Positions 11,208 to 62,204 of a DNA stretch of 64,000 bases are shown in pieces. How positions within the stretch are numbered: position 1 is the stretch's first letter; each line of letters opens with the position of its first letter. This DNA comes from Anaerolineae bacterium (GTDB lineage Bacteria > Chloroflexota > Anaerolineae > Epilineales > Epilineaceae), in contig DAOUCP010000113.1 in NCBI GenBank assembly GCA_034432155.1, positions 40 to 64,039 on the forward strand, given 5' to 3'. Under the pieces are notes generated by a model. That model did no database searches, was not told where the DNA came from, and was given only the letters and a program-made list of their open reading frames with translations. A program made the position numbers and the translations under genes.

Positions 11208-11271
11208 CGGTTCTCCAGTTCATTCTCGCGCGGACGGCTCGCCGACCAGCGCTGGACGCCCTGGGCGACCG

Positions 11272-12792: not shown

Positions 12793-13476
12793 CTATTTCA
12801 CGTCCGGCAGCTTCTTCAGGCACATGAACCAATCGAGGCATGTCACATCGGGATCGGGTTTCTCCACCCGATCCTTGGCCACGCCACAAGAACCCGGAGG
12901 CGGAACGATGACATCGTCGCCAGGCTGCCAGTTTGCCGGCGTCGCGATTCCATACTTGTCGGACGTTTGCATAGCAATCAGCAAACGCATGATCTCATCC
13001 ATGTTACGCCCATTAGAAAGCGGGTAGTACAGGATTGCCCGCACGATCCCTTTGGGGTCAATGATGAAAACAGCCCTAACTGCCTGCGTAGTACTCGCGC
13101 CAGGCTGCAGCATACCGAAAGCTCTTGACACTTCCATTTTGAGATCTTCAATAACCGGGAAGGTCACCTCGATATCCCGCATGCCCTTGTAGCTGATCTT
13201 CTCTTTGATTGTACGCAACCACGCGATATGTGCATAGATGCTGTCAATCGAAAGCCCGAGAAGCTTGCAGTTCCTCTTCGCGAATTCCTCTTGCATGGAA
13301 GCGAAGGTCATGAACTCCGTCGTACACACCGGAGTAAAATCTGCGGGGTGCGAGAAAAACACGACCCAACTTCCCTCAAAATCCTTGGGGAAATGAATCT
13401 CGCCCTGTGTTGTCTTAGCCGTGAACTCCGGTGCCTTGTCACCAATCAATGGCATTCGTACGACCTCTTCGCTCAT
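12793..13476 (-). CDS. Peroxiredoxin, Prx6 (1-Cys/archaeal TdxH-like) subfamily
   Basis: FSHPADFTPVCTTE peroxidatic motif; YYPLSNGRN; ATPANW; extra C-terminal Cys in PGSCG and CLDWFMC; AGGAG RBS. Confidence 0.92.
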   Translation of the reverse strand: MSEEVVRMPLIGDKAPEFTAKTTQGEIHFPKDFEGSWVVFFSHPADFTPVCTTEFMTFASMQEEFAKRNCKLLGLSIDSIYAHIAWLRTIKEKISYKGMRDIEVTFPVIEDLKMEVSRAFGMLQPGASTTQAVRAVFIIDPKGIVRAILYYPLSNGRNMDEIMRLLIAMQTSDKYGIATPANWQPGDDVIVPPPGSCGVAKDRVEKPDPDVTCLDWFMCLKKLPDVK

Positions 13477-13785
13477 TGCTTTGTGCTCCTTCTATCATAA
13501 TGGTTTATCTGGCGGCAAGCTAGGTATGCTTCCCACCCGACAGGCTCACGACTCGCCCGCACGAAGCGTCGGCCGCGTACCGCGGGCCCGGGGCCAGCAC
13601 GCCACCGCCCCGAAGCTCCCGCCTGCTACTTGGTGTTCGGGAAGGCGGTGTGCCCCAACCACGGCGGTGCGGACTTCATCCCAAGTGTACCTTTGCACAA
13701 CCCAGGCCGTCAAGCGCCTGCCGGGCCGCATCGACACTGCTTTCGGCCTGGCCTACGATCCGTCAGCAAACGCGCAGCGGGCGAC

Positions 13786-13940
13786 GGGGGCGACCAAGGT
13801 GGGAACCACAGAGCCGGCGCGCCCACTCTCGAGCCTTGGGGGCGACCGAGGTGGGAATCACAGCGCCGGCGCGCTACTCTCGAGCCTACGGGGGCAACCG
13901 AGGTGGGAATCAAGAGCCGGCGCGCCCACTCTCGAGCCTA
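13786..13940. repeat. Three tandem ~52-bp repeats with an internal hairpin (gaggtggg...cccactctc)
   Basis: Copies start at 13786, 13838 and 13890: gggggcgaccgaggtgggaatcacagagccggcgcgcccactctcgagcct. Confidence 0.85.
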
Positions 13941-14221
13941 GGGCGGCCACGAAGGCAGGGCCCTTCCCTGCGTACCTCCGCCAGCCAGGGCTGCAGGTCG
14001 ACACCGTCCATGCCCAACAGGGCAAAGCGCTTCGGCCCGCGGTCGCCGACGTGCGCATCGCGTTCGAGGAGCGTATGCTGGGCCAGTTGCCCTGATCCTG
14101 GCCACCTTTGCGGATCGGCGCGGGCCGGACCACTTGACGCGGCCCGCCGCCGCGGGGCAGAATGGCTCGACGCCCTCAGGGCCGAACGGTGCTTTGGCCC
14201 ATGCTTCCGAAGGAGTGCCCC

Positions 14222-16336: not shown

Positions 16337-16421
16337 TGGGGCGGCTGGGACTCGAACCCAGACGAGGGGTAGCCTCAGCGGAGTTTAAGTCCGCCGCGTC
16401 TGCCAGTTTCGCCACCGCCCC
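16337..16421 (-). tRNA. trnL: tRNA-Leu (anticodon UAA), CCA not encoded
   Basis: GGGGCGG acceptor stem, D-loop TGGCAGA, anticodon arm GCGGA-CTTAAAC-TCCGC, long variable arm, GGTTCGAGTCC T-loop. Confidence 0.97.
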
Positions 16422-19500: not shown

Positions 19501-19653
19501 CGACGTCGGAGGATCGTACTGCACCTCGTTGATGACGACCATCGGCCTCTGCGCCGCCGGCGCTGCAACGATGGTGCCCTTCGCTGCCAGACGGCCGGCC
19601 AGGGCAAGCCCCAGAGCCAGATAGGCTGAACGCGCCAGAACTGCCTTTCTCAC
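16513..19653 (-). CDS. Secreted protein with four lamin-tail domains (LTD), Pro/Thr linker and C-terminal OB-fold(s)
   Basis: AGGAGG RBS before GTG 19653; signal peptide; four (V/I/L)(N/T)E...EW(L/I)EL.N units; C-terminal GxV...YIGDASSG..V.ARG....Y.GERQL and V.GIVSQY OB-like segments. Confidence 0.85.
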   Translation of the reverse strand: MRKAVLARSAYLALGLALAGRLAAKGTIVAAPAAQRPMVVINEVQYDPPTSGSEAAYEWLELRNADAGPVKMSGWQIGDNRSASALPDLELASGEFVVVAAGDGFEELHPGFAGRVVRLDGRIGNGLGNSGDQVRLLNALGELVDGMSYGDDVGLLNPSVPGAPAGHSLERYPAGADTDSAADWIDQPSPTPGEAAGDNPRPPTSEHPVPTAAFGDVALNEFLAAPRDVDWDGDGTASANDEWIELTSLADVDMDLRGWQLDDVADGGSAPFVLPEGTVLRSRGYLLFFRRDSKIVLNNDRDTVRLLRPDGSSADEMEYPRTVPDGSYARLPDGSGPWTDSLSPSPGGPNGSPHPTPTPAGPTQAPSATPGEGRATPTRTVGPTTTPGAVRPTPTRPGQPTAGPGATVVPTPAYLPMVVTEVLYDALASGDDSAYEWLELFNRSDAPVRTKGWAVGDAVSWDSLGDQVVPPRGYLVVVASRDVAREVEASGAAVWVVPDGRIGNGLANKGDLVRVRDPTGLVGDAVSYGGNLDAFDPAVPLVPPGWSIERIPRDQDTDCAEDWWPQPVPSPGQAGVLQSQAPEVVINELLPAPRTVDWDASGASGFTDEWLELYNRSAFPVDLAGWRLTVGEPERWSFRFRDGQVIAARGFRVIHRAESGLALGNRADEVRLVRRDGMVADVVSWETGPSYDRSLCRLPDGGDWRADCQATPGEANRLAPSPSPPAAPTPLATRVEGPKPAADYRDLGLAAVRQLADGQAVALRGVVLAPAGLFGARTMYIGDASSGLRLYLGVRNGALPTLPVGSPVAARGTLGSYHGERQLVLSHSTEVWLDDWAWPPIEPVPVASGAMGEEFEGRLVVVRGRVTRLIGSAVWLDDGSGECRIRIDPRTKLRRPPLRRGQRWAVAGIVSQYAARRPYEGGYRLMPRFATDLGLPLSAATKGPGRAAVAGSAALRRSASPTSAGPGSAGPVSAGAGAAHPAFAGAASAGADSADANFAHVDGVAASTPGRGTTRSVKGAQLGTSVGSPWTPPSRWSLRDRPPVPF

Positions 19654-19924
19654 GACGTCTCCCTCCTGGGAACGATCGCGCCGCAAACGGCCTGGGCGAC
19701 CAACTGCAGCGCGGCCGGAGCATACGGCCGGGCGCGCAGCTTCGGAGAGGGACTCGGCGCCAGTTCGGCGCCACGTTGGCGACAAGCCGGGACCGCCGCC
19801 GGCCCCAGCCGCCGCGCCATCATTTCGACTGGCCGACTGGGGATGCTATTGTAGGGCCTGGCTCGACGGCTGCCGGCCCACCGCCGGCAACCGGCCGAGT
19901 GACGCGGAGTCATCCAAGCCGCCG

Positions 19925-44231: not shown

Positions 44232-44278
44232 TCCTGGAGCCAGCGTTTGCGCCCCGCGCAGCCGTGTGACTCTCGGCG

Positions 44279-44306
44279 AAGCAACGGGAAGCTTTTCCCG
44301 ATGCTT
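44279..44306 (+). terminator. Hairpin downstream of pruA, possible terminator
   Basis: aagcaacgggaa-gctt-ttcccgatgctt, one mismatch; no long U tract. Confidence 0.45.
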
Positions 44307-44768
44307 AGCACTAGGTAAAGGCACTGGCTTCGCATACCACCCTGCCAGGCAGGGAGTCTAGTGGGCGCGATGCACCGGTGCCGGCTGCTTCGCCCAAGGG
44401 GCCTTGCCGAGCGTCACGTCAGCGGCTGTTCCGGCAGCGACGAGCTGCTGGTACCCTTGCTGGACCACGTCCATCGCCATGCGGCCGGCGCCGGCGTCGG
44501 GGCGTCGCACCATGGGATGGGGGAGCCAGCGGACCGAGCCCCTTGGCCCATACGGGGCTCCGGGGCATACCCTGCCGCTCAACACCGGACCGGCAGACCG
44601 GCGCCCGCTGACGAACCACTTGGAAACAGTGCTGGCCAGTGCTGTACGAGAAGCGGCCGCCGCTACGGAGGCGCGACCTACTCCGCAAGGCAGCCGCCGG
44701 CGGCGGCCAGGAGGGGACGTATGCTTCGATCTCCTGACCGTTGGATGGCAGCCGAAAGGAGGGGCCGG

Positions 44769-45629
44769 ATGCGCGCATTTCTGGTAACCCCAACCGTGGC
44801 AGCCGCTGGGCTGCTCCTTGCTGGACCCTCGGGGGCGGTGGTGGCCGAGCGACCAAGCCGGCAGGCGCCGGCGCCCGCAAATGGGCCGCTCGTTGGCCAC
44901 TGGCTCGTGGCAGTGCTTGGAAGGGCCAAGGACGTCCTCTGGTTGGCCCGTAACGCTGTTTGCTCTGGACATGGTGTCACGCAGGTTGGGGGTAAGAATC
45001 AGCCAAACGGCCGTCGTGACGTACCGCGACGGCACTTGACAAGGACAGCAGAGCCCCTTTGCCCAAGGGATGCCCTGCCCTGGCTGCTGGCGGTCCTTGT
45101 ACGATGTGGACATGGTGTCCGAGTCGGAGGGCTGGATCGTGGGCGAGCGGGGGCGATGCTCCACTACCAAGACGGCGAGTGGCAGGTGGTGACGCCGCCC
45201 CCGGATGCGGCGGAGGCGTGGACCCGCGCTATCCGCATGGTCGCTGCGATGGAAGGGTGGGCGGTTGCCGACAGGCTGTTTCTCCACTACCCCAAGGGCG
45301 CATGGGAAGGCGTCCCCAGCCCGACCACGCAGGCGCGGAAGGTCATCGACAAGGTGAGCGCCGGCGAAGGGTGGGCGGCAACGACGGAGGGCACCTTCGT
45401 CCACTACGCCGGTGGCAGCTGGCAAGTAGCCGACAGGCCGATTACGGAGGCGATCGATGACCTGGACATGGCCTCCTCCGATCGTGGCTGGGGCGCGGCC
45501 GAGTGCTCGCCCTGCAGGAACGATGGGATGCGCTACGCGGCCGGCCAAGGGACGCTCGAGCGGCACGGCTTGTACCTACCTGGGCTGAGCAAGCTTGCGC
45601 CATGGCGCGGTGCAGCGGCGAGGGATTGA
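44769..45629 (+). pseudogene. Secreted beta-propeller-like repeat protein pseudogene (two frameshifts, one nonsense codon)
   Basis: AGGAGG RBS; signal peptide; repeated (L/V)DMVS..EGW.V...(H/T)Y.DG.W units split across frames; TGA at 45037-45039; G-run shift near 45150; ends GLYLPGL. Confidence 0.7.
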
Positions 45630-45836
45630 TCCCGGACCGCCACGGCGGGGCCTGCGTTGTCCGCGGGAGGCAGTCCAGCGTCTCCTCTACCGGCACTCCG
45701 TGTGGAGCGCGATCGTCGGCCGCGCGCCACATGTGCCGGCGGGCAGGACTCGTCACTGCTGCCGTCCCCGGGCCTGCCCTGGCGGGCAGAACTTGTCACC
45801 GCTGTCGTCGCCTAGCCTGCCCTGGCGGGACGGGCA

Positions 45837-46716: not shown

Positions 46717-47877
46717 ATGGCGCTCGAGACGAGTTCCCTGCCCGTACCTGCCCTTGCGCGCCCGCCGCATCAGCGTGTGGGCCGTTTCTTGTTGGCCGTG
46801 GCGCTGCTTCTGATCCTGGCAGAGCTGGCAGCCGTGGCAGCCCTGATCGCCTTCACCCTCTTTCGGCTGACCGACGGCCACGCCTCGCCCTCTGGGATGC
46901 GCCGCCGACCAGCGTTCCTGATGCCCCTGCCGGGGAGCAACCCGGACCGGGTCGAGATCAACGTGTGGGACCATCACGGGCCTTTGAACGTGCTCCTCAT
47001 TGGGCTCGACGCCGACGATTGCGCCGTCCAGGGCAGTACCACCATGGCACGACGCGCAGATACGATCATCGTCGTCCGCATCGATCCCCAGACCAAACGC
47101 GCCGCCATGCTGTCGATCCCCCGCGACCTCTATGTCGCTATTCCCGGCCACGGCGCACGCAAGATCAACACCGCGCATGTCCACGGGGAGCTGGATCGGA
47201 GCCTACCCGGCGGCGGACCACAGCTCTTGGCCGAAACGATCGAGGCCAACTTCGATATCCCGATCCATCGGTACGCCCGCGTGGATTTCGCCGGCTTCGA
47301 GCGGATCATCGATGCCGTGGGCGGCATCGACATCGTCGTGCCGCCGTCACCGCGCGATCCGCGGATTGGCCTCTTGGACAGCGAGTATCCGGACGGCCAT
47401 TGCGGCACCATCACTGTCTGGTTCCCACCGGGGCCCCAACACCTTGATGGCCAGCGTGCCTTACAGTACGCCCGATCCCGCAAGTCGACGAGCGATTTCG
47501 ATCGCTCGCGGCGCCAGATGCAGGTTCTGCTGGCGCTGCGGCAACGCGCACTAAGCCTGGGTGCCGTTCGACACTTGCCCGAACTGGTGCCAGCTCTGAT
47601 GGACGCGGTGGATACCGACTTCACAGCGGCGGAACTCATCTCCCTGGCTCGGCTCCTGCCTGCGGTTGGCGCCGACGCGCCCACCTACTCCCTGGACGAG
47701 CAATCGCTGTACGCCGAGATGCTGGTCATCGACGGCGTTCCGCAGGCCACCTTGCGGCCCGACCCTAGCGCCCTGGCTGTCGTTCTCCACAGCTTCATGG
47801 CGCTGCAGCCGCCCACCCCCACACCCCAGCCGAGCGGTACGTTGGTGCCGAGCGTGCCAGGCGTTCCGACACCGTAA
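46717..47877 (+). CDS. LCP (LytR-CpsA-Psr) family cell-wall glycopolymer transferase
   Basis: TM anchor; NVLLIGLD, RADTII, MLSIPRDLYV, KIN, VDFAGF..IIDAVGG, ALQYARSR, DFDR.RRQ; TGcTATAAT at 46695-46703. Confidence 0.92.
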   Translation: MALETSSLPVPALARPPHQRVGRFLLAVALLLILAELAAVAALIAFTLFRLTDGHASPSGMRRRPAFLMPLPGSNPDRVEINVWDHHGPLNVLLIGLDADDCAVQGSTTMARRADTIIVVRIDPQTKRAAMLSIPRDLYVAIPGHGARKINTAHVHGELDRSLPGGGPQLLAETIEANFDIPIHRYARVDFAGFERIIDAVGGIDIVVPPSPRDPRIGLLDSEYPDGHCGTITVWFPPGPQHLDGQRALQYARSRKSTSDFDRSRRQMQVLLALRQRALSLGAVRHLPELVPALMDAVDTDFTAAELISLARLLPAVGADAPTYSLDEQSLYAEMLVIDGVPQATLRPDPSALAVVLHSFMALQPPTPTPQPSGTLVPSVPGVPTP

Positions 47878-47902
47878 GCCGGGCAGGAAGAGAGACAAGC
47901 GC

Positions 47903-48940
47903 TTGGCGGAGTCTCTTGCCTTGCTGCGGCTCGCCCACGCCGCAGGGCGCCTGGGCGAGGCGCAGGCACGGGCGGTGGCCACAGCGCTGCGTCAGCGAAC
48001 GTCCGACTTGGCGATCTCGCTGATCCCGGTGGCGGCAGATCCATTCGGCCAGGCTCGCCGTTCCGGCCAGGGCGAGACGGCGAAGACCGACTCCCTGGGG
48101 CGCGCCCTGCAAACCGGTCTGGCCGATGCCGCGGTGCGGAACGCCGCCGACTATCCGTTCGGCCTGGGCGACGAGTCCATGACGGTGGTCGCTCTGCCGC
48201 GCTACGACCCTCGGGACGCCTTGGTGTCCCGCAACCACAAAAGCTTCAGCTACCTGCCGCCGGCAGCCGCCGTCATCACCTGTGGTGCCCATCGCCGTGC
48301 CCAGCTGCTCCGCCGCCGTCACGATCTCTCGGTGACGCTTACTGCCGCATCTGCCGAATCTCTGCTCGCCCTCCTGGATGCAGGTGCTTGCGACGCGGTG
48401 GTCGTGGCCGGGAGCGAGCTGCTCTGGCTGGACCTCCAGGTGCGCGTGACGGAGGCCATCGACACCGACTTGTTGATCCCGGCCGCCGGTCAGGGCGCCC
48501 TGCTCGTCCAGACTGCAGCCGAGGGACCGGCCGCCGAGGCGGTCGCGGTGCTGCACGACGTGGCCAGTGCTCATGCGTTGCAGGCCGAGCAGGCATGCAT
48601 GCGGCGCCTGGGCCCGCCCGTCGACGCCGCGGTAGCCATCCATGCTGCCACGGAGGACGAGGACGTGCTGATGCACGGCATTGTGGCCGAGCTCGAAGGT
48701 GGCCATGCGGCCCGCCTGCGCTGGCGTGGCCCCCGGCGGGCGGCCGAGGACACGGGGGCCACAATGGCCGAGCTTTTGCTCGCCGCCGGTGGTCGCGAGA
48801 TCTTGGCCGGCCTGCCCTTGGAGTCCACGGGCCGCTACACCTTCCGCATCGCCGAGCCCGGCTTCGGCCGATCGTCGCCGGAGCTTACCGACGATGAGCG
48901 GTTCCCCCTCGATGGCCGCGACTGTGGCGGACGGCCGTAG
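47903..48940 (+). CDS. HemC (porphobilinogen deaminase)-like protein lacking cofactor Cys and most catalytic Arg/Lys residues
   Basis: Full-length collinear similarity (R.DPRDALVS, RRAQL, G..DAVVVA, PAAGQGAL, AE.A...RL, G...AE.LL..GGREIL) but HSMKD is RNAAD, RGNV..RL is AASA..LL, and GGCQVP is GPPVDA. Confidence 0.8.
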   Translation: MAESLALLRLAHAAGRLGEAQARAVATALRQRTSDLAISLIPVAADPFGQARRSGQGETAKTDSLGRALQTGLADAAVRNAADYPFGLGDESMTVVALPRYDPRDALVSRNHKSFSYLPPAAAVITCGAHRRAQLLRRRHDLSVTLTAASAESLLALLDAGACDAVVVAGSELLWLDLQVRVTEAIDTDLLIPAAGQGALLVQTAAEGPAAEAVAVLHDVASAHALQAEQACMRRLGPPVDAAVAIHAATEDEDVLMHGIVAELEGGHAARLRWRGPRRAAEDTGATMAELLLAAGGREILAGLPLESTGRYTFRIAEPGFGRSSPELTDDERFPLDGRDCGGRP

Positions 48941-49081
48941 GCGATTCCTCCGCCACACAAGCCGTGCGCGATAGAGGCGGCTCCTCGCCATGCTCCGACC
49001 ACGGGGGCCACGGAATGCAGGTATCGTCCTGCTCGGACCATGGGAACCCCGCTGTGCACCGTCCGTCATGCCGAGACCAGG

Positions 49082-49196
49082 GGCCACGGTGTGCACTGCC
49101 CGCGACGCTGGGACCACCTTGGCCGCGGTGTGCGCCCCCACGACGCTGGGACCACGTCGGCCACGGGGTGAACCTCCCGCCCGTACGGGACGCTTG
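49082..49196. repeat. About three imperfect 38-39 bp direct repeats (ggcc(a/g)cgg.gtg...cgacgctgggaccac)
   Basis: Units start at 49082, 49121 and 49159. Confidence 0.55.
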
Positions 49197-49210
49197 GCGC
49201 AGCGGCAAAG

Positions 49211-49239
49211 TTGACTCACCAGATGGTTAGTGCTATATT
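49211..49239 (+). promoter_or_regulatory. Near-consensus sigma70 promoter of the LysM gene (TTGACT-17-TATATT, extended TG)
   Basis: -35 at 49211-49216, -10 at 49234-49239. Confidence 0.75.
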
Positions 49240-49324: not shown

Positions 49325-49840
49325 ATGGCCACGCGAGGCCGCTTGGTTCTACTTGTCGTCCTGTTGACCACGGTTGTGCTGGCGGCAGGTCAGGCCAACA
49401 CCGTCAGCGCCCAGGGCGGCATGCACTGCGTGCGTCCGGGCGAGACCTTGTACCGCATCGGCGCCATGTACAACGTGTCGCCCTACCTGATCGCCCACGT
49501 CAACGGCATTCCCAACCCAGCGTACATCCGGGCTGGTTCGTGCCTGCGCATTCCGCCGGCCTTCGGCACGTTCGGCTGTCAGTACCCGGGTTGCCAACCC
49601 AAGCCCGTCATACAGCCTTGCTATCCGCAGCCGTGCCAGCCAAAGCCGGTTGTGCAGCCTTGCCGGCCGCCAGCATGCGGCGGTCCCTCGTATACGCGCT
49701 ACTGCGTGCGGCCCTGCGACACCCTATTTGCCATCGGCCGACGCTTCGGCGTGTCGCCTTGGGCAATCGCCAGCCTGAACGGCTTGACCAATCCGAACTA
49801 CATCCGCGTTGGTCAGTGCTTGCTGATCCCTACTCGCTAG
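49325..49840 (+). CDS. Secreted two-LysM protein with Cys/Pro/Gln-rich linker
   Basis: GGAGG RBS; signal peptide; V.PG(C)(E/D)TL..I...(Y/F).VS...IA..NG..NP.YI..G..L.IP twice; 11 Cys. Confidence 0.9.
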   Translation: MATRGRLVLLVVLLTTVVLAAGQANTVSAQGGMHCVRPGETLYRIGAMYNVSPYLIAHVNGIPNPAYIRAGSCLRIPPAFGTFGCQYPGCQPKPVIQPCYPQPCQPKPVVQPCRPPACGGPSYTRYCVRPCDTLFAIGRRFGVSPWAIASLNGLTNPNYIRVGQCLLIPTR

Positions 49841-51758: not shown

Positions 51759-54700
51759 CTATTGGCCACCGACCTCAAGGAGGAAGCGGTCGCGATCGGC
51801 GGACCCGGGAGGACCGGTGACCGGCAACCGCACACCGGTAGCCAGATCGTACCAGCCGATCGCCAGCCGGAGGCGGCCGTGCGGCGGATCGCCGATCGCG
51901 CCAGCGGATGGTTGCAGCACCACCGCGATGTCGAGCGGCTGGTTCAGCGGCCAGGCGCTCGTGGGCAGCGCACCATCGAATGGCTGGCCGTCGTGTTGGG
52001 CAACGAGAACTTCGCGGCCGTCCTCGCCGAGCCGCAACAGGTGTACGAACAGGGTATAGTCGCGCCGCGGCTGGGCGGTCGCCATCCAGCGCAGTGTCAC
52101 GGTGAGCGGCCGGCCGGGGCCCACAGTCCGCGTCGGCGACAGGGCGTAGCCTTGCAGGGCCAGCTCGCTGCCAAAGTGCGCACTGGCCTTGTGGTCGATC
52201 GGCGCCAGACGCTCGTGCACGACAGCGATGCTGCGCCTGAATTGGTCGGCGACGGCCGCGCCATGCGCGTCAAGGACGGGCAGCAAGCGACGCGTGGCCT
52301 CGTCGTACAGGCTGACCTGTAACCAGTAGCCGCCCGGCGTGAGGTCGGTCGGCACCGAGAGCGGCATGAGATCGTGGAACTGCTCCCCAGGGCGCCAGCC
52401 GGTCGTCGGCCGTGTCCCGTGAAGGATCGGTCGATCCTCGTTACTCCGCCGGTCAAGCCCGGGATCGAGCAACTGAATGGAGGCGCGAACGCGGTGAGTC
52501 GGCACGGCGTAGCTCTCCCAGACAAGACCGACCAGCACCCGCCGGCCGACGCAAAGGCTTTGGGGCACGGCCAGCCCGACGAGGCGGATGCCGTCGGCAA
52601 AAGTAACCGGCGCGGCGAGGCCGGGCGTGCCAACGCGGACATGAATCGGCGGTAGCACGAACGGGCGGGGGTGCACCAGAATCGACTTCGCCGCCCGCTG
52701 GGGCAACAGACGCCCGTCCTCTCGGAGCGAGAGCTGCATGGGTACCTTGTCCCCAGCCTTGCGCTCGAGCTCGTGGGGCACGCGAAACGTGTGCCGCGTC
52801 GTCACGACTTGGCCAGCCCTGAGATTGGCGAAGGCGCAGCCCGTGTCTCGCCCGAGAGGCCCAGCGTCGACGGTCAGGGTCACTGGCCGCTCCGGCGTAG
52901 CCGACGACAGCCACCGCCAGTGCAGGGCGAGCCGCACCTCGTCCCCGGGACGCACCGATGGCGGCGCCTCGAAGCCCAACAGGCGCGCACGGCCCGGCCA
53001 CACGGCCTGCACGGGCCGCGCGCGGCGCACGGAACTCTCGTCGGCGGATGCGATGCCGGCCGCCGAGTCGCGCAGGGTGTCCTCGGCCTGCCCAGCGCCG
53101 GGCCCGCCGAGCGCTACCGCCAGACCCTGGGGCACTCTGCCGACCGCGTCGAACGGTCGGCTGGAGACCTCGACAAGCGGGCCGATCGACCGTGTGTAGA
53201 AACCGTCTGCCGGGTCGGGCTCGACACCCCACAGGTAGACCGGACCCCCGCTGGCCGGCAGACCGTCCAGGATGCGCCGCGCCGAGGGGGTGTCGGCGTA
53301 CATGATCCGCACGTCCGGCCGCCGGCCCTCGATGAGCTGCGGATACAGAAGCGCCGAGCCCAGCTGCGGCTCCACGACGATCGAGGCGCCAGCGGGTAGG
53401 CCAGCGTCCAGGATCCTCCGGCCCAACGCGGCCGGCGGCCAGCCCTGGCTGCGATCGCACGCCGGTCCGTTGTTCCACAGCTGGCACACGGGCAGCAGCA
53501 ACGCCAACGTCCAGTAGACCGCCGGCAGGCAGTGTCGCGGGGCGGTGTCGGGCGCCAGCCTGGCGCTGCCGGCGGCGGCTTGGTATCCTGCGGCACCCAG
53601 CGACAGCGCCGTCCGCGCCCTGCGGAGCGACCCGCCGAGCCGGTCTTCCACCGCGGCCATGCCGGCCGCGACCCACACACCGACGATGAGATGCGAGGGC
53701 AGCAGGGTCACCCATCCGTCCCACGCGTTGTAACCCGCGCGAAACGTCACATGAAGCAACCATACCATGCCCAGCCACATCGCCCACTGCGTGCGCCTGG
53801 CCAGAAGCCACACCCAGCCGAGGGCGGCTAGCAGCAGGAACGGCGCGCCGAACTGCGACGTGAGCTCGTACCGAAGGAGCACGAGTAGCCGGGTCGGATC
53901 CTCGAGCGGCCAGGTGGGGCGAAAGAGGCCCGTGTACGGGCTGGCCGTCGCATAGCCCAGCACGTCGGCCACCCGAGCCGGCCGCCCGCTTACCGCCGGC
54001 CAGCGCGCGAAGAGGTAGAGGGTCGGCGCCAAGCCCGCGAGAAGCGCCATCGCCGGCCCCACCAGGCGGCGGGGGCTAACGAGCAACCTCGGCTCGTTGA
54101 CGAGAACGGCCCCGGCCAGGGCGGGCGCGAGAAACACAATCGTGGCGTGGTGCGTCAAACCCAGGCCGAAGGCAAACACCGCAGCGAGCAGCCACCTCGT
54201 AGCGCCCCTGCCGGATGCGCCCGACCTCACGGCAGAGGCCCACCGCATCGCGCCCAAGAGCACGACCGCCACCAGCAGCACGTGCGTTGCATACACCTCC
54301 GTGATGACGGCAAGCGACCAGAAGGCGGGCGTGAAGGCCAAGGTGAGTGCCGCGGCCAGCCCGGCAGACGTCTTGCCCGTCAGGTGGGCGCCGATGAGGG
54401 CCGTTACGCCCACGGCCACGGCTGCGGAACACGCCGACAGGAGGTTCATGCGATAAGCGATGTCACGCACCGGTAGGAGCGTGAATAGCTTGCCGAGCAT
54501 CGTGTAGAGCGGATAGCCGGGTGGATGGGCGAGCGTGAGCTTGTGGGCGACGACTTGGAACTCCAAGCTGTCCGCCACGTCGGTGGTCGGCGACAAGGTG
54601 CGCAGATAGATAGCGAGCACGACGAGGGCCGAAGTCACGGCGATCGGCGTCGCCCCATGCCTGAGCCGCCGCCGATCCATCCACAGAGCGAGCACCCCAA

Positions 54701-54827
54701 GCAGCGACACGCTTAGAATTGCCGCTCCCAGCCACGGTCGCACCTCCGGCTGTCTCGCATAGTGAAGGTTTAGCAGCAGCGGGACCAGCAAGCAGACGGA
54801 CCTCGGCACGGCTCGCCGGGCGGTCAC
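51759..54827 (-). CDS. DUF2723 (TMEM260-like) GT-C membrane glycosyltransferase with extracytoplasmic C-terminal beta domains; start approximate
   Basis: DSLEF...AHPPGYPLY..LGKLF..NLLSA..A.ITEVY..H..GL.HH; many TM helices; C-terminal GYAL..L.W..DYTLFVHL..DGQP..PTSAW..G.YD. Confidence 0.88.
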   Translation of the reverse strand: MTARRAVPRSVCLLVPLLLNLHYARQPEVRPWLGAAILSVSLLGVLALWMDRRRLRHGATPIAVTSALVVLAIYLRTLSPTTDVADSLEFQVVAHKLTLAHPPGYPLYTMLGKLFTLLPVRDIAYRMNLLSACSAAVAVGVTALIGAHLTGKTSAGLAAALTLAFTPAFWSLAVITEVYATHVLLVAVVLLGAMRWASAVRSGASGRGATRWLLAAVFAFGLGLTHHATIVFLAPALAGAVLVNEPRLLVSPRRLVGPAMALLAGLAPTLYLFARWPAVSGRPARVADVLGYATASPYTGLFRPTWPLEDPTRLLVLLRYELTSQFGAPFLLLAALGWVWLLARRTQWAMWLGMVWLLHVTFRAGYNAWDGWVTLLPSHLIVGVWVAAGMAAVEDRLGGSLRRARTALSLGAAGYQAAAGSARLAPDTAPRHCLPAVYWTLALLLPVCQLWNNGPACDRSQGWPPAALGRRILDAGLPAGASIVVEPQLGSALLYPQLIEGRRPDVRIMYADTPSARRILDGLPASGGPVYLWGVEPDPADGFYTRSIGPLVEVSSRPFDAVGRVPQGLAVALGGPGAGQAEDTLRDSAAGIASADESSVRRARPVQAVWPGRARLLGFEAPPSVRPGDEVRLALHWRWLSSATPERPVTLTVDAGPLGRDTGCAFANLRAGQVVTTRHTFRVPHELERKAGDKVPMQLSLREDGRLLPQRAAKSILVHPRPFVLPPIHVRVGTPGLAAPVTFADGIRLVGLAVPQSLCVGRRVLVGLVWESYAVPTHRVRASIQLLDPGLDRRSNEDRPILHGTRPTTGWRPGEQFHDLMPLSVPTDLTPGGYWLQVSLYDEATRRLLPVLDAHGAAVADQFRRSIAVVHERLAPIDHKASAHFGSELALQGYALSPTRTVGPGRPLTVTLRWMATAQPRRDYTLFVHLLRLGEDGREVLVAQHDGQPFDGALPTSAWPLNQPLDIAVVLQPSAGAIGDPPHGRLRLAIGWYDLATGVRLPVTGPPGSADRDRFLLEVGGQ

Positions 54828-54886
54828 CGCATCGCCCGGCGCCGCTGGGCATCCGGCCTCGCCAGACGCGACTGGCCGACGGAGGC

Positions 54887-55663
54887 TCACGAGGTGGGCC
54901 GGCGCGCCAAGTGTGCTGCGTCGCCTCGCATCCTGTGCCGATGCACGCGCCATGCAGTCAGCCGGGCGACGGTGCCCAGGGCGCGCCAGATCTCCGTCCG
55001 CGAGATCTTCGAGGCTCCCCGCCGCCGCTCCTCGAAGACGATCGGCACCTCGGCGATGCTCGCGCCGAGCTGCTGGCATACGAACAGCATCTCGATCAGG
55101 AAGGCGTAGTCGCTCGAACGAAGGCGATCGAACTCGATGCGCCGCAGCAGGTCGGTGTGGTAGCACCGGAAGCCGGACGTGCAGTCGCGCGCCTCCAGCC
55201 CGGCGGCGAGGTGCGCGACCGCGTTCGCGCCGCGGCTGAGCGCCCTGCGGTGCCAGCCCCAATGCCCGATGCCGCCCCCCGGGACATAGCGGCTGCCGAT
55301 GACGACCTCGTGGTCCGCGCTCGCCGCGAGCAAGCGGGGAATGTACGCCGGATGGTGCGAGAAGTCGCCATCCATGGTGACGATACGCTCGGCCCCCAGC
55401 GCCAGGGCGCTGCGAAAGCCGGCGACGTAGGCCGTGCCGAGACCAAGCTTGCGGGGGCGAGAGACGACGTGGAGCCGGCCTAGCCGGTCGGCGAGCATCT
55501 TGGCGACGGCCGCCGTGCCGTCCGGCGAGTTATCGTCCACCACCACCAGGTGTGCGATGCCCTTCTGGCCCAGGATGGCCTCGGCGAGCGCGGGCAAGTT
55601 GTCGGCCTCGTTGTACGTAGGGACGACGACAATGGCGTGCGGCAACGGTTGGTCTCGCTCCAA
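54887..55663 (-). CDS. Polyprenol-monophosphomannose synthase (GT2, Dpm1-like); start approximate
   Basis: VPTYNEADN, VVDDNSPDGT, KLGLGTAY..GF, MDGDFSH, VIGSRY, DCTSGFR, EVPIVF.ERR.G.SK. Confidence 0.92.
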   Translation of the reverse strand: MERDQPLPHAIVVVPTYNEADNLPALAEAILGQKGIAHLVVVDDNSPDGTAAVAKMLADRLGRLHVVSRPRKLGLGTAYVAGFRSALALGAERIVTMDGDFSHHPAYIPRLLAASADHEVVIGSRYVPGGGIGHWGWHRRALSRGANAVAHLAAGLEARDCTSGFRCYHTDLLRRIEFDRLRSSDYAFLIEMLFVCQQLGASIAEVPIVFEERRRGASKISRTEIWRALGTVARLTAWRVHRHRMRGDAAHLARRPTS

Positions 55664-55749
55664 GCGCGGATCCCGCGGCGGGCCAGACCGCCGACGGCTA
55701 ACAGCGGCTATTGTAAGCGGCCCACCGTTGCGTCGCCAGCCGTCGCGCC

Positions 55750-56296
55750 GGGGCAGGGCGCCTGAGCTGCTGATCGTCGGGCCGGCATCGAGTGAGCTGA
55801 CCATCGTAAACCTGGATGCCTCGCGAGCCGTGCCTACGTCGGTGCAGCTGTTCCGAATCGGCACTGGCGATCGCGCCGCCGTCCTGCTGGAGCGGGCCAT
55901 TGCGCCGGCAGACGCGGTAACCTTGTCCCCGGCGGATTGGTCGCCAGTGGCGAGCGGGGGTTACTCGGCACGCTCCAGGTGGCCGGGCACAGGGACGTTG
56001 TAGCACACGCCGGACCGACACCGAGCACGGAGGTCATGCTGCCTGTGGTGAGCCCGCACCGCCATGGGCAGTCGTCGCTGATCGTTGTTCTCAACACGGA
56101 CCCCGACTCGCCCGCGCACGCGACGCTGTCGGTATTTGGTGCTGCCGGCGGCCCACCGGTCCAGCCATGGGAGGTTGCCCTGCCGCCGGGCTCTTCTCAC
56201 AACTTCGACCTCGCCAGCAGGCAATGGCGCTCCGCAGATTCCGACTTCGGGGGGTCCGTCCGGGTGACCTCGACGATTCCTACGCCGACCTGGTGA
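55750..56296 (+). pseudogene. Truncated, frameshifted fragment resembling the 49868-51622 secreted protein
   Basis: SELTIVNLD..V..G.YSA in one frame; TEVMLPVV...QSSLIVVLNTD...PG.S..FDL..FGGSV in another; aligns by eye with TSLILPL...TSILYFQNTD; no signal peptide. Confidence 0.5.
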
Positions 56297-56823: not shown

Positions 56824-59289
56824 ATGCACGGCCCACAGAAGGCGACTGGCCTACGCGCGCTAGGCAGGATTGTCGCGCTCTGTCTGGTATCGACGCCCCT
56901 CCTCGGCGGGTTCCCTGGCCAACGGACGGCCATCGCCGCCGCGGCGCCAGTTTGGCCGATCCCCGACTTGGTGGCCGACCTCGCGGCCCTGCTTGGCGAA
57001 CTCTACCGGCAAAGGGCAGACGCCAGCACCCCGGTCTTCTACCTGGCGCCGGAGTGGGAATCCGACAAGTGGCGCTCCAGCAAGGATCCCGACACCCTCT
57101 GGGAGTACGGCGCTCGCCCAGAGACGCGTTGCCATGAGGCCACCACCATGGCCGCCTTCGTCGACTGCACAGGGCACCGTCTGGCGCTGGCGGCCGACGT
57201 TCCGTACCGCGGCGGACTCAGTCTCTTCGATCCCACAGCCGGTTTCGCCGCCCATGCCAAGCTCATCGAACTGGCCGGCATCTGTGCACTCTACCATGCC
57301 TACGTGCGTGACCACGACGCGACCCTGGCAGGCGCTTACAGCGCTGCCGAGGCCCGCGACGCTAAGCGCTACCACGAGGCCATGATGCGCGCCTACGAGG
57401 CGCACATGCGCGACATCTTGCTCCGGATGTTCCGTGACACGCGCCATGACCCAGCCTTCCAGTTCGAGTTCACCCTGGGTGCCGGTTGGTTGGCGCTGGC
57501 CTATGTGCGGACGGTCCAGGCACTGGAGACGGTCGATGCGTGGGCCGATCCCGAGGACCGGCGCAGCGCGTTGGCTCTCGTGAATGGTCTGAACCAGCGA
57601 CTGTGGTGGGAGTGGATCTGGCCCCAGACCGAAGGTCCTCGAACGGCTGGCTTCGTGGACCTCGGCAGTGAGGCCACGCAGGCCGCCGCCGCGGCGTCCG
57701 GACCCGGCTGGGTGGGCACCGACCGCTTCCGCTCCGATGGCGGTGTGGTGTTGAGCCTGCGGCCCAGCTCGCTGGACGAAGGTCCCTACGACGGCCTCTG
57801 GGTGGATGCCGACTATGCCGCGCCTGGCGAGTGGTGGTGCTACGCTCGGTATGGCGGCTTCAGCACAAGCCTTGGCGATTGCCTGGGCCAGGCGCGCAAG
57901 GCCTCTTTGGGCGGTTCGCGCTCGCCTTTCGGCCAGTACTACGGTCAGCCCGGTACCGGCACCGCGTGCGGGTCTCGAGCCAGCAATGTAACCCCCCAAA
58001 CCTGCGGCGTGCCCAATCGTGGCTCGATCGCGCTCGACTGGGTCCAGGCCTTTCTGGGAGCCCGGCTGGGCATGTTCGTCATTCGCGAGCTGGCCCAGTC
58101 GAACGATGCCCATCTGCCGGCCGGCGCCATTGGTCTCCGGGAGCTGCCGACGGTGACCTCCCGACTTGGGTACGGCGTGGCCGGTTGGCATGGCGGCGCC
58201 AATCAGCACGACGATCTGGAGTGGCCGTGGAGTGCGGCCTTGCCGGTGGTGGCCATTCGCACCCTCTCGGCAGCCCGACACGATTTGGAGCCTCAGGATG
58301 GCCGGTTCAGCCTTGGCGAGACCGACACCTCGGCCGTCTCGGTCGCCCGTCGCGGCGACACCTGGTCGGACGATCAGCAGGAATTCCCGGGCGCCGTGGA
58401 GCGCCAGGCAGCCGGGCCCAGCCCATTCTACGGACCGGAGCTTCTGGCCTTGGTTCTCTCGGACCGCACATCCGACGGCCTGGCTGGCTCGTTCTACGAT
58501 GCCCAAACACGAGACGAACCCGACGAGTTCGACGTTTGGTTGTGGCTCCTGTTATCGAGCTTCTACCGTTGCCCGGGCGTGAGCGATCCCGCCGACGGGG
58601 CTTGTGTGGCCTTCTCCACCGCCCACTGGCCGAACCCGGCGGTCATCCGGCGGGTTCCGTTGTTCAGCCCGCCCGCTGACCCCCTGCCCGATGCACGATT
58701 CCGCAACCTCTGGCTCAACCCGGTGACCGACACGGGGCCGGTCATTGGCGAGGGCAGCATCGCCGACCGCGACATGACCTGCCGTGGCGGTGGCGGGCTA
58801 CCGTGGCAGCATGTCGCCGACTGGACGGCGCTGGCCGACTCGGGCTACCTCGTCGACGAAGCCGGCCAGGGCCCGTACGACAGCCTCATCCCGGCCTTTG
58901 GCAGCGCCTTGCGGCTGCTCGCGGCACGGTACGCCGAGGCCCCACCGGACCCGGCGCTGGCAGACGACTACGAGCGGGCGCGCAGTGACGTGCTCGCACC
59001 ATGGTACGAGGAGCTGCACCGCCAGGTGAAAGCGTTGCTCGTGCTCTACCGAGATGCGCCACCGGCGGGGTTCCGTTACCTTCCCGGGGTCGAGAACTCC
59101 ACCTGCATCGGCTTCGATCCCTATGTTCCTGGAGACCCGTCGCTCAAAATGGTGCTGAGCTGGCAAGGCGGCACCAGTTCGACGCGCGAGCGAGCGGTTG
59201 CCCACCGCGCCATAGGTTACAGTCGCGTCGTCGAGTGGTACTGGTGTTACAGCGATGACTGGCTCACCGTGGACGCAACGACCTGGTAG
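56824..59289 (+). CDS. Large secreted protein of unknown function (821 aa, Trp/Tyr/Asp-rich, paired Cys)
   Basis: GGAGGAGG RBS; signal peptide ending AAA; long ORF with strong GC3 bias; no family motif recognised. Confidence 0.85.
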   Translation: MHGPQKATGLRALGRIVALCLVSTPLLGGFPGQRTAIAAAAPVWPIPDLVADLAALLGELYRQRADASTPVFYLAPEWESDKWRSSKDPDTLWEYGARPETRCHEATTMAAFVDCTGHRLALAADVPYRGGLSLFDPTAGFAAHAKLIELAGICALYHAYVRDHDATLAGAYSAAEARDAKRYHEAMMRAYEAHMRDILLRMFRDTRHDPAFQFEFTLGAGWLALAYVRTVQALETVDAWADPEDRRSALALVNGLNQRLWWEWIWPQTEGPRTAGFVDLGSEATQAAAAASGPGWVGTDRFRSDGGVVLSLRPSSLDEGPYDGLWVDADYAAPGEWWCYARYGGFSTSLGDCLGQARKASLGGSRSPFGQYYGQPGTGTACGSRASNVTPQTCGVPNRGSIALDWVQAFLGARLGMFVIRELAQSNDAHLPAGAIGLRELPTVTSRLGYGVAGWHGGANQHDDLEWPWSAALPVVAIRTLSAARHDLEPQDGRFSLGETDTSAVSVARRGDTWSDDQQEFPGAVERQAAGPSPFYGPELLALVLSDRTSDGLAGSFYDAQTRDEPDEFDVWLWLLLSSFYRCPGVSDPADGACVAFSTAHWPNPAVIRRVPLFSPPADPLPDARFRNLWLNPVTDTGPVIGEGSIADRDMTCRGGGGLPWQHVADWTALADSGYLVDEAGQGPYDSLIPAFGSALRLLAARYAEAPPDPALADDYERARSDVLAPWYEELHRQVKALLVLYRDAPPAGFRYLPGVENSTCIGFDPYVPGDPSLKMVLSWQGGTSSTRERAVAHRAIGYSRVVEWYWCYSDDWLTVDATTW

Positions 59290-59334: not shown

Positions 59335-61683
59335 TCAGTCGCGCTGAGCCACCGGCACGTACAGATACCACACCGCACCCGCTGGATCGACCGTGCCGTA
59401 TGCGAAGAGCCCCGCCGACGTGGCCAACCAGACGGTCCCATCCACGCCGATCGCCAGGTCGCGGACCAGCGCCCCCTCGGGCAAGCCGATCTCGGCGGCT
59501 TGGAACGCGTCGATCCACAAGCCGGCCGGGTTCTGGGCCGCCAGGATGCCACGGGCCGAGGCAAGCCACCGCTCGCCGTCCGGGCCATAGGCGGCCGCTG
59601 CCACCCAGTCATCGCCCACGCCGTTTGGGAAGAGCGGCGAGTTCGACAGGTCGATCACCGCTGCCCAGGTCTCGCCGGCGAACTGATTCTCGTACACGTG
59701 GGTGCTCACGGTGCGGCGGCTCGCCGGATCGAGGCTGTGGCGCTCCACCCACGTGAAGACCACCGGCCGACCGTCCGGCCGCAAGCAAGCCGCGGTTGCG
59801 TGTCCGCCGGTGCGGTAGCGCGGCGACATGGCGACGTCCAGAAGAACGGGGAAGGGCACGCCACTTACCTGTGGCAGTGGATAGAGGGCCCGATGCCCCA
59901 CAGCCCAACCACCGCTCGGTGCGCCGGCGGGTGCTGGGTTGGCGAGCAGCCGGACGGACGGCACACCCCGCCTCAGGGCCGTGGGATCGACATCCAAGAT
60001 CAGGTCGCCTTGCAGGTGCCGGCCGGCCACATAGGGCCGCAGGCCAGCGATCCTGCAGGGGGCGATGCCGGTACAGCGGACCGTAGTCTCGACTGGCACC
60101 CGTGCGATGCCGGTCCGATCCACGAGCACCTCTTGGTGCAGTCGGACGCGACCGTCCGGTGACCACTCGTCGGCTCCCTCGACGCGCCAGCTCTGACCAT
60201 CGAAGTATTCGGCACCGATCCAAACATCGCCTCGCTCGTTGAATGCCCAGAAGCCCTCCAGGACCCCCAAGCGCCGAACGTCCTGGCTCTGCCGCATCAC
60301 CGCCTGGCGCAAGTCGGCATAGAGGCGCCACGGGCCGTGCGCCAGGGCGGCTACCACGCCATCCGGCCGGCGTTCGCCAAGGTAGACTCGCACCCACGCC
60401 GTGCCGTCGGCATCGGTGCTCACGCGCCGGACATCGTCGGACGCGAGCGGGGCGTTGGCACGGCTAAAATGCCGCCAGCTTCGACCAGGAAGACGTGTGG
60501 GGAAGGCCGTCGGCATCGGTGATGGCATGACGGCAGTCGGTGTGCCAGTTGGTGGGGCGGTGGGCGAGGCCGTCGGCGATCGTGTTCCCGTAGGCGTCGA
60601 CGTGGCGGTCGCTACCATGGCCGTGCCCGTCAAGGTGCTGGTTGGAGTCCACAGTCCGGTGGCCGTCGCCGTACCGGGCTGGGTGGGCGTGGGCAGCACC
60701 GGTTGCGGCATGGCGAGAGCGATCCGCTGTGCCTTCCAGGAAGCAGTGAAGACGCCGAGTAGCTGCAGGTCCGCTGGATCGCTGGCATCCACAACCTCGA
60801 GCCCGCCATCCAAGCGGGCCACGAAGACGCGCTGCCCCTCGCCGGCAACGTCCACGAAGTCGCCCGGAAGAGAGCCGATCACAGAGGGCATCACCGGATC
60901 GCTGTCGTCCACGGCGCTCAGACCTCCCGGCTCGGAGCCGCTTGCCGTGGCCGCGACGTACGTCATGTCGGCAACGGCTACGGCGCGCATGTCGCCTGAC
61001 AGCGCGATCCCGCCGAGGCCAGCAGGCTGCGGCGGCTGCCGAATGTCGGCGATGGACAGGCCATGGATGGGCAGCCGACCCACGAGCAACAGCCATCGGT
61101 CGCGGATGGCCAGGTCCTCTGGGCGGCCGAGGAACAGACCCACTTGTTCGGGCTGGCTCGCATCCGCTACCCGGACCACCACCACCCCGAGAGCCCCGGC
61201 GAGGTAAGCGTAATAGCCGTCCGCCACCACCGCCGTGGCACCGAGCTGCAGCGTTCCCAGCACGGCCGGGGCCGTCGGGTCGGCCACATCGACCACGTGG
61301 AAGGACGTGGGGCTGACGAGGTACGCACGATCGCCAAACACGGCGACATCGGTGGCGTCTTCGGCGAGCGAACCGACGAGTTGCGGCGCCGTCGGATCGG
61401 TGACATCCACGATGGCCATACCGGCAGCGCCACGCGCGAGGTAGGCGTGCCCTTCCTGCACGACGACCGCCCGGGTGCCCGTCAGATCAGCGACGGCGCC
61501 CACCTCCACCGGTGCGGCGGGGTCGGATACGTCTACCACGCGCAGCCCATCCTCGCCAGCAGCCACAAACACGTGCGAAACAGGCTGTGCCTGACGCGAG
61601 GGCAACGCCTCGAAGAGGCCGATGGCGGCCACGCCACCGACCACCACCAGCGCGACGCGATGCGCGACACTTAGATCGTTCAC
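59335..61683 (-). CDS. Secreted LVIVD-repeat beta-propeller protein with Pro/Thr linker and second propeller-like (regulator-propeller) domain
   Basis: GLRVVDVSDP..P, GMAIVDVTDP, SFHVVDVADP etc.; LASDDVR..STDADG..W and VRDLAIG.DG.VWLAT..GL; ends YLYVPVAQRD. Confidence 0.85.
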   Translation of the reverse strand: MNDLSVAHRVALVVVGGVAAIGLFEALPSRQAQPVSHVFVAAGEDGLRVVDVSDPAAPVEVGAVADLTGTRAVVVQEGHAYLARGAAGMAIVDVTDPTAPQLVGSLAEDATDVAVFGDRAYLVSPTSFHVVDVADPTAPAVLGTLQLGATAVVADGYYAYLAGALGVVVVRVADASQPEQVGLFLGRPEDLAIRDRWLLLVGRLPIHGLSIADIRQPPQPAGLGGIALSGDMRAVAVADMTYVAATASGSEPGGLSAVDDSDPVMPSVIGSLPGDFVDVAGEGQRVFVARLDGGLEVVDASDPADLQLLGVFTASWKAQRIALAMPQPVLPTPTQPGTATATGLWTPTSTLTGTAMVATATSTPTGTRSPTASPTAPPTGTPTAVMPSPMPTAFPTRLPGRSWRHFSRANAPLASDDVRRVSTDADGTAWVRVYLGERRPDGVVAALAHGPWRLYADLRQAVMRQSQDVRRLGVLEGFWAFNERGDVWIGAEYFDGQSWRVEGADEWSPDGRVRLHQEVLVDRTGIARVPVETTVRCTGIAPCRIAGLRPYVAGRHLQGDLILDVDPTALRRGVPSVRLLANPAPAGAPSGGWAVGHRALYPLPQVSGVPFPVLLDVAMSPRYRTGGHATAACLRPDGRPVVFTWVERHSLDPASRRTVSTHVYENQFAGETWAAVIDLSNSPLFPNGVGDDWVAAAAYGPDGERWLASARGILAAQNPAGLWIDAFQAAEIGLPEGALVRDLAIGVDGTVWLATSAGLFAYGTVDPAGAVWYLYVPVAQRD

Positions 61684-61865
61684 CGGACGCCCCGCCTTCC
61701 TGGCCAAGATCTGGCTCCGCGATCCGAGCTTACACGCAGTGGAGCCTCGAATCAAGCCCCTGTGCCCAGACATTCGCGGACAAGGCAGCGCTGGGGGTAA
61801 GGCGCAAGGCCTCCAGCTTCGGGCCTGGATCGGGAATGGCATCTGCCGGATGGCGAAGGTGGGCT

Positions 61866-61990
61866 GGCGGCCTCGCGGCCGGAGCGCGAAGCTGGGGGTT
61901 GCGGCCCTGCAGCCGGAGCGCGAAGCCGTGGCTGTGGCCTCGCGGCCGGAGAGCGAAGGCGCGGTTGCGGCCTTCCAGCGGGATCGCGAG
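61866..61990. repeat. About four imperfect 33-bp tandem repeats (gcggcc....gccggagcgcgaag)
   Basis: Read directly at 61866-61990; upstream of the LVIVD gene. Confidence 0.6.
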
Positions 61991-62204
61991 CCTGTCAAGC
62001 GTCAGCTGGGAGGACTGCCCCAGCCTTCCTGTCCTGCACCGGTCATCGGCTGGACACGAGCCGAGTCCCCAATGAGAGTGCGCCCAGCTGGCGTCGTGCC
62101 GACACGACCAGAAGCTTGTGGCGCACGGGTGCCATGGCGCCGCCCAGGACCTCGCCACCATCCCCACCGCCACTCGCCGGCCGACGTGCCCCCCGGGCCT
62201 TCAG

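Follow-up and report, generated by a model that had tools for sequence, protein, structure and literature searches.

A HemC-like protein without the catalytic residues of hydroxymethylbilane synthase at the site of a hem operon in Anaerolineae-type Chloroflexota

In hydroxymethylbilane synthase (HMBS, HemC), Cys242 is the residue to which the cofactor is covalently attached and Asp84 is catalytic, and Arg149 and Arg155 are involved in ES2 formation and in the ES4-to-EP step (PMC8561815). Here we describe a HemC-like protein in which the cofactor cysteine and the catalytic motifs have been lost, encoded at positions 47903-48940 of a 64,000-nt stretch of DNA from an Anaerolineae bacterium (assembly GCA_034432155.1, contig DAOUCP010000113.1, positions 40 to 64,039 of the forward strand; the whole stretch is called the window). 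We refer to HemCs of this kind as dead. Dead paralogues that regulate an active counterpart are known, the AdoMetDC prozyme of trypanosomes being an example. Full-text searches of the literature retrieved no description of a dead HemC or HemC-like bacterial protein, and nothing linking LCP (LytR-CpsA-Psr) genes, one of which adjoins the gene described here, with hem genes in Chloroflexi. We regard the dead HemC as a non-catalytic variant of a known enzyme family for which we found no prior description.

The open reading frame (ORF) begins with a TTG at 47903 on the + strand and stays open over 345 codons to 48940. A public gene caller chose an alternative in-frame TTG at 47921, which gives a protein of 339 aa (P0001); a purine-rich, Shine-Dalgarno-like motif resembling AGGA/GGAG lies about 8 nt 5' of both starts. 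An antisense ORF of 474 aa (47795-49219, - strand) spans the whole HemC-like gene and was rejected as a high-GC artefact, as it is interrupted by stops in the related loci L001, L002 and L004. The gene and the parts of it discussed below are:

47903..48940, + strand: dead HemC (HMBS) derivative, with a three-domain HMBS fold and a TIGR00212 score under the cutoff
48137..48151, + strand: codons R79-N-A-A-D83, in place of HSxKD (E. coli H80-D84), placed by alignments
48560..48805, + strand: domain 3 and C-terminal helix, residues ~220-301, placed by conservation counts and by the secondary structure and confidence of the AlphaFold2 model
48620..48622, + strand: GTC coding for Val240, which takes the place of Cys242, the residue that binds dipyrromethane; placed by alignments

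The protein matched the N-terminal, cofactor-binding domain of the family (PF01379) with 89.6 bits (E 2.6e-25), passing the cutoff of 22.1. The match to the C-terminal domain (PF03900) was weak, at 16.8 bits and under the cutoff of 26, and the hemC equivalog TIGR00212 gave 118.4 bits where 164 is the trusted cutoff. The AlphaFold2 model, for which 103 sequences were aligned, had a predicted local distance difference test (pLDDT) score of 88.7 and a predicted template modelling (pTM) score of 0.85. When this model was compared with the PDB by Foldseek, ranks 1-32 were all HMBS, with E. coli 1ypn and 1pda at the top (E ~1e-30, template modelling (TM) score 0.90 normalised on the target, ~30% identity), and ranks 33-50 were periplasmic binding proteins (SsuA) and LysR effector domains with TM scores of 0.3-0.4. 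The ORF and its homology to HemC are real, far beyond chance. A reading made earlier from the window alone (the sequence-only reading) had proposed an intact ORF of ~345 aa collinear with HemC over three domains, and the open frame, the Pfam and TIGR00212 matches and the modelled fold all bear this out.

For the residue check, the window protein was aligned with some 30 sequences besides E. coli HemC, and E. coli numbering is used throughout. The cofactor cysteine is replaced by valine (C242 to V, Val240 in the loop LGPPVDA), HSMKD has become RNAAD (K83 to A, S81 to N), and further substitutions are R11 to A, S13 to G, R149 to A, N151 to S, R155 to L and R176 to W. Neither of the lid motifs, TRGD and GGKGLF, remains. 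In the E. coli enzyme R11, R131, R132 and R176, like the Arg149 and Arg155 introduced above, bind cofactor and substrate carboxylates; at R11, R131, R132, R149, R155 and R176 the residues of the window protein are A, H, R, A, L and W, R132 alone being kept. The losses of C242, K83, R11, R149, R155 and R176 had all been called by the sequence-only reading and are confirmed by the alignment. That reading had also held the R131/R132 pair to be kept, which is correct for R132 and incorrect for R131: an ungapped alignment anchored on AQLL...DL puts HRR at R131/R132/Q133, so that R131 is His in the window and the RR pair aligns with R132/Q133. The other residues kept are D84, R101, D106, Q198, G199 and E231. 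The retention of D84, likewise noted before, holds for the window but not for its orthologues, where the equivalent is H, E, V, Q, A or R; because the position varies among orthologues, D84 in the window may carry no weight. Because C242, K83, R11, R131, R149 and R155 have been lost, the protein would be unable to attach the dipyrromethane cofactor or to catalyse pyrrole condensation.

Relatives with the same losses were found in several searches. A word-seeded search of 5.8 billion proteins returned four that ranked above canonical HemCs (P0002, 58% identity; P0003, 59%; P0004, 48%; P0006, 41%), and a profile search run exhaustively over 1.84 billion cluster representatives brought in P0121, P0123-P0128 and P0130, for a picture of about 11 dead-type clusters at 50% identity together with the active HemCs of the lineage. 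Two loci from Anaerolineae/Anaerolineales metagenome-assembled genomes (MAGs), L005 and L008, came from a scan of GTDB species representatives, and a later profile search with the lineage's active HemCs added the dead P0290 and P0300. The dead clade holds at least 15 intact sequences, all from Anaerolineae-type Chloroflexota, with identity down to ~35%. Neither the cofactor Cys nor any of the motifs HSxKD, RGNVxTR and TRGD/GKG is present in its members. In dead members other than the window protein the Cys242 position holds P, A, G, P, V, I, T or R, and all canonical sequences aligned have Cys there.

The nearest active HemCs (P0005, P0122, P0129, L006, L007 and P0270-P0299, except the dead P0290) keep all motifs and are labelled Anaerolineae, Ardenticatenia or Ardenticatenales where they are named. 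These Anaerolineae/Ardenticatenia-type enzymes (P0005, P0122, P0270/L007, L006, P0278) are the closest relatives of the dead HemC, at 40-45% identity. They share with it C232, F.YLP, QLLRRRSDL, FDTDQMIPAPGQG, ARLRWSGP, TLAELL and a C-terminal P.PPT.RY tail, but have all catalytic motifs intact, and their genes belong to hemA-hemC-hemD-... operons. In a neighbour-joining (NJ) bipartition bootstrap, 13 dead sequences were monophyletic in 77 of 80 replicates, and dead and active Anaerolineae-type HemCs formed one clade in 80 of 80; an earlier tree of 33 sequences agrees. The simplest reading of this tree is that there may have been one ancient inactivation. Orthologues with the same losses and conserved synteny had been suggested as a check on the window protein, and at least 15 diverged relatives have thus come to light, the 13 tested forming one clade.

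The least-decayed dead member is P0290 (L017 2639-3607), which is 63% identical to the active P0005 and lies near the base of the dead clade. Its cofactor loop still reads GGGVNRPIG, with only the Cys changed to Val, and its locus already has LCP directly upstream and no hemA. This sequence could show the order of the losses.

We compared the loci that carry dead HemCs with those of the active relatives. The neighbouring features in the window are:

46717..47877, + strand: LCP (LytR-CpsA-Psr) gene (PF03816, 137 bits)
49211..49239, + strand: sigma-70-type promoter-like element, TTGACT-17-TATATT with extended TG, 5' of the LysM gene, recognised by sequence
49325..49840, + strand: secreted protein with 2 LysM domains and a Cys/Pro-rich linker (PF01476, 82 bits, in two stretches)

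The LCP protein has a short N-terminal tail, one transmembrane segment and an extracytoplasmic catalytic domain; its start was set at M69 of a long ORF by alignment to the L001 orthologue, and its stop lies 25 nt before the HemC-like start. The window protein and the other members of the dead clade have neither a signal peptide nor a transmembrane segment and are predicted to be cytoplasmic. The presence of LCP upstream and LysM downstream, as read from the window alone, is supported by the PF03816 and PF01476 matches. Equally, a tblastn search that used HemA, D, B, E and Y of Anaerolineae as queries (E <= 1e-3) agreed with the earlier statement that there are no other hem genes in the 64-kb window, and it recovered no fragments of these five genes beside the HemC-like gene, in the window or in 21 kb of L001. 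No haem- or tetrapyrrole-dependent gene was recognised under Pfam among the ~40 window ORFs, a result that is uninformative on haem use.

The canonical locus L007 reads LCP-hemA-hemC-hemD-hemB-hemE-hemY(PPO)-LysM, all on one strand, and L006 (where the contig begins inside hemA), L011 and L013 read hemA-hemC-hemD-(hemB)-hemE-hemY-LysM. The dead loci read LCP-deadHemC-LysM. LCP is immediately upstream of the dead HemC in 7 of 7 loci (the window, L001, the P0004 contig, L002, L005, L008 and L017), and a secreted protein with two LysM domains is downstream in 5 of 6 (the window, L001, L004, L005 and L008; L018 differs). LysM orthologues follow hemY in the canonical L006, L007, L011 and L013, and the LysM proteins have a common architecture (HCVR.GETLY... 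twice) and 40-50% identity across locus types. The window LCP is 80% identical to that of L001 and 48-56% identical to those of the other dead loci and of the canonical L007, and the L007 LCP is as close to the dead-locus LCPs (48-56%) as these are to one another. This comparison of gene orders shows that the window locus corresponds to the canonical locus minus hemA, hemD, hemB, hemE and hemY, and would make it a positional relic of a collapsed hem operon. Because canonical relatives have LCP and LysM on either side of a complete hem operon, the neighbourhood appears to be inherited and is by itself silent on function. The sequence-only reading had placed the protein in a cell-envelope neighbourhood; as a pointer to function this does not hold, as the same genes flank the hemA-C-D-B-E-Y operon in canonical relatives and LysM has its own promoter.

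That promoter can be written TTGAC-N17-TGCTATATT, and the window, L001 and L004 have exactly the same GGTTAGTGCTATATTAAG core. AT-rich promoter-like sequences are found at the same place in the canonical loci. The gap between LCP and the dead HemC is 17-90 nt in all loci, and no terminator is predicted between the two genes. Because of this short gap, the absence of a predicted terminator and the conserved promoter of LysM, LCP is probably the sole plausible co-transcription partner of the dead HemC.

The spacer between dead hemC and LysM showed two further features. The GGTTAGTGCTATATTAAG core lies at 49211-49239 in the window, 11107-11138 in L001 and 1165-1182 in L004, in spacers that are otherwise ~50% diverged. 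At 48984-49174 the window has a repeat of 37-39 nt (GACCACGG.GGCCACGG.GTGCA-like) in about five degenerate copies; this repeat is missing from the L001 and L004 spacers.

Selection on the protein is purifying and real, but relaxed some 2-3 fold compared with the neighbouring genes. When the window is compared with L001, the dead hemC shows 58% identity and its neighbours 67-86%, making it the fastest-evolving gene of the syntenic block. The ratio of nonsynonymous to synonymous substitution rates (dN/dS, Nei-Gojobori) for this pair was 0.28 for the dead hemC and 0.06-0.15 for neighbouring genes, and the dead hemC gave 0.21 against L004 and 0.28 for L005-L002. Of the six reading frames, the HemC frame alone is open in all six dead loci at the DNA level. 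Judged from these alignments, the gene is not a decaying pseudogene and the loss is old. Recent decay had been raised as a possibility, with relatives keeping C242 and the arginines and dN/dS near 1; instead, the relatives share the losses and the ratios are 0.21-0.28. The description of the protein as an intact HemC-fold pseudoenzyme therefore stands, with the catalytic residues lost, the fold and frame kept and purifying selection across at least 15 members.

To see where constraint remains, we counted the positions conserved in >=80% of sequences among 14 dead and ~28 active HemCs of the lineage. Sixty-one positions were conserved in both groups, 91 in the active group only and 18 in the dead group only; at 16 of these 18 the active majority residue is identical and falls just below the threshold. 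Domain 1 has 56 conserved sites in active sequences and 16 in dead ones; the corresponding figures are 54 and 31 for domain 2, and 37 and 30 for domain 3. Domain 3 and the C-terminal helix (ARLRW.GP...AELL..G..IL.G) are the best-conserved part of the dead clade and are common to the lineage's active HemCs. The former catalytic motifs, in turn, have been replaced member by member: HSxKD by RNAAD, REGAH, FGAEE, HAYEV, VGLRQ and others, and RGNVDTRL by TAASAESLL, TSDSTAALV, IPNDIGALL and others. No newly conserved clade-specific residue or cleft pocket was found in this comparison. The pattern fits a protein that would need to keep its fold and to expose domain 3, hinge surfaces and the C-terminal helix, with the constraint on the cleft gone. 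Because no residue is newly conserved and the cleft is variable, the pattern argues against a new ligand-binding cleft, and the repurposed cleft proposed by the sequence-only reading is unlikely, the former active-site positions differing between members. The protein is probably not a tetrapyrrole enzyme, and a small-molecule binder seems improbable.

We consider it fairly probable that the gene is a descendant of hemC at the hem operon site, left over from the deletion of the five further hem genes and kept for an older, non-catalytic role. In this explanation, Anaerolineae HemC would already have had a non-catalytic moonlighting role through lineage-specific features of domain 3 and the C-terminus. 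One sublineage would then have deleted hemA, D, B, E and Y and kept only the hemC-derived ORF, with the older role alone holding the gene in place after the operon was gone. Because constraint falls on features already present in active HemCs and there are no new conserved residues, a continued older role appears the better fit. This role would most plausibly be a protein-protein interaction or a scaffold through domain 3 and the C-terminus, and the dead HemC is now probably co-transcribed with the adjoining LCP gene. LCP as a working partner is possible; this idea is weakened by the short cytoplasmic tail of LCP and by the ancestral adjacency. The broader proposal, that a second HemC function residing in domain 3 and the C-terminal features has outlasted deletion of the tetrapyrrole pathway, possibly together with the adjoining LCP cell-wall glycopolymer ligase, is tentative and in our judgement leans towards the unlikely.

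Several points weigh against retention of hemC for an older role after collapse of its operon. The tree was built from distances, and sequences that evolve fast can be drawn together in such trees. The pairwise dN/dS values are rough, as dS is saturated (>1); the effect of saturation would, if anything, be to raise the ratios. Conservation was counted along the alignment, and the step to a moonlighting interaction is drawn purely from conservation patterns. LCP is directly upstream of hemA in one canonical locus only (L007), with other genes at that place in L011, L013 and L015. Finally, the dead-HemC genomes were seen at this locus only, and a complete hem operon elsewhere in them would mean segmental duplication and not in-situ collapse.

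The last of these points leads to the best-surviving rival, in which the dead gene would be a paralogue born of a segmental duplication, with an active hem operon elsewhere in the genome and the dead copy regulating or competing with active HemC or its partners. Regulation of active counterparts by dead paralogues is a known pattern, and the dead clade keeps surfaces shared with active HemC, namely domain 3, the C-terminal helix and the P.PPT.RY tail. However, the locus is collinear with the flanks of the canonical operon, and the LCP and LysM identities fit a single orthologue group. None of the traced active HemCs sourced from NCBI came from GCA_900174595.1, the assembly that carries P0002, which is weak evidence given that MAGs are incomplete. 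On balance we think a paralogue rather unlikely.

A second rival would have the type II periplasmic binding protein (PBP)-like cleft repurposed to bind a new ligand, the protein working with LCP and LysM in assembly or regulation of the cell envelope. It draws on the 7 of 7 loci with LCP directly upstream at a gap of 17-90 nt, for which co-transcription is plausible, and on the resemblance of the fold, beyond HMBS, to periplasmic binding proteins and LysR effector domains. However, the adjacency to LCP and LysM appears to be inherited from the hem operon flanks, LysM is under its own promoter, and the LCP catalytic domain and LysM are extracytoplasmic whereas the HemC-like protein has no signal peptide or transmembrane segment. 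Since the residues of the former cleft also vary with no new conserved residue among them, we hold this possibility to be quite improbable.

The gene might also be a functionless pseudogene that merely has not been disrupted so far. It is the fastest-evolving gene of its syntenic block (58% against 67-86%, window versus L001), and high-GC DNA yields long chance ORFs, the antisense frame being open in the window as well. This explanation is largely refuted and would be very improbable: the frame is intact in all dead sequences recovered, down to ~35% identity, and of the possible frames the HemC frame alone is open in all six loci, with dN/dS at 0.21-0.28 under saturated dS. The residues of the structural core are conserved and the AlphaFold2 model is confident, and a chance frame of 345 codons is expected at ~1e-3 per lineage by a rough estimate from base composition.

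C232 (EQACMRRL) was considered as a substitute cofactor Cys and rejected, and an HMBS still active through this residue, which is invariant in the clade, is scarcely credible: the lineage's active HemCs carry C232 as well as C242, making it a lineage feature and not the replacement that had been envisaged, K83, R11, R131, R149 and R155 are gone and D84 is not conserved, the TIGR00212 score is under the cutoff and there are no hem genes nearby.

Other parts of the window differ from L001 or stand out in composition. An Rfam scan of the window found one tRNA only, and no riboswitch or non-coding RNA near the HemC-like locus; this sole tRNA gene (16337-16421, - strand) adjoins a gene for a 1090-aa protein with four lamin-tail domains (16513-19785, - strand). 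At 44232-45836, ~1.6 kb separates aldehyde dehydrogenase and cyclase genes that are only 25 bp apart in L001; its long ORFs, on both strands, have no Pfam match, and an insertion or a gene specific to the lineage may account for it. At 51759-55900, genes for a 1167-aa TMEM260-like/PMT_2 glycosyltransferase and a GT2 glycosyltransferase lie between conserved genes for 655-aa and 821-aa proteins, and this pair has no counterpart in the L001 gene order. L001, in turn, has a heliorhodopsin gene (17458-18291) between the 821-aa gene and an LVIVD-repeat gene, and the window counterparts (56824-59289 and 59335-61998) adjoin with no space for it. The stretch at ~4000-14000 has a lower GC content, 0.575-0.63 against ~0.68, and encodes a 961-aa N6/N4 DNA methylase (7850-10735, - strand) and several ORFs without a family; it may be a mobile or restriction-modification island.

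The dead HemCs bear on genome annotation. P0004, from a contig of JGI metagenome 3300075153, is labelled hydroxymethylbilane synthase by JGI despite having neither the cofactor Cys nor the catalytic motifs. Anaerolineae MAGs are abundant in wastewater, sediments and hot springs. Labels of this kind would over-call their tetrapyrrole and haem capacity and may inflate pathway completeness, and a check for the cofactor Cys and RGNVxTR would fix the mis-annotation. The comparison also indicates that a functional neighbourhood can be pure inherited synteny, the inspection of active relatives at the same locus having changed the interpretation here. In evolutionary terms, an operon would have been deleted and one of its enzyme genes would have survived as a dead yet selected protein, which suggests a hidden second function of a textbook enzyme. 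If a second HemC function is real, the protein would be the first HemC dedicated to a non-enzymatic task, and nature would have provided an unusually clean separation-of-function experiment.

Set against E. coli HMBS (1pda/1ypn), the window protein has the same three-domain fold and is collinear throughout at ~30% identity; it keeps the structural R101, D106, R132, Q198, G199 and E231 and sits at the hemC position of its relatives. It differs in having no Cys242, Lys83, Arg11/131/149/155/176 or TRGD, GGKG and RGNVxTR motifs, in scoring under the equivalog cutoff and in having no hemA, D, B, E or Y alongside. With type II PBP-fold binders such as SsuA and LysR effector domains it shares the PBP-II topology of domains 1 and 2, but the likeness is far weaker than to HMBS, and there are no conserved pocket residues, no signal peptide and no DNA-binding domain. 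Like pseudoenzymes such as the AdoMetDC prozyme, it keeps an enzyme fold under purifying selection after loss of the catalytic residues. Unlike them, the dead HemC appears to be the orthologous leftover of a deleted pathway and not a regulatory duplicate.

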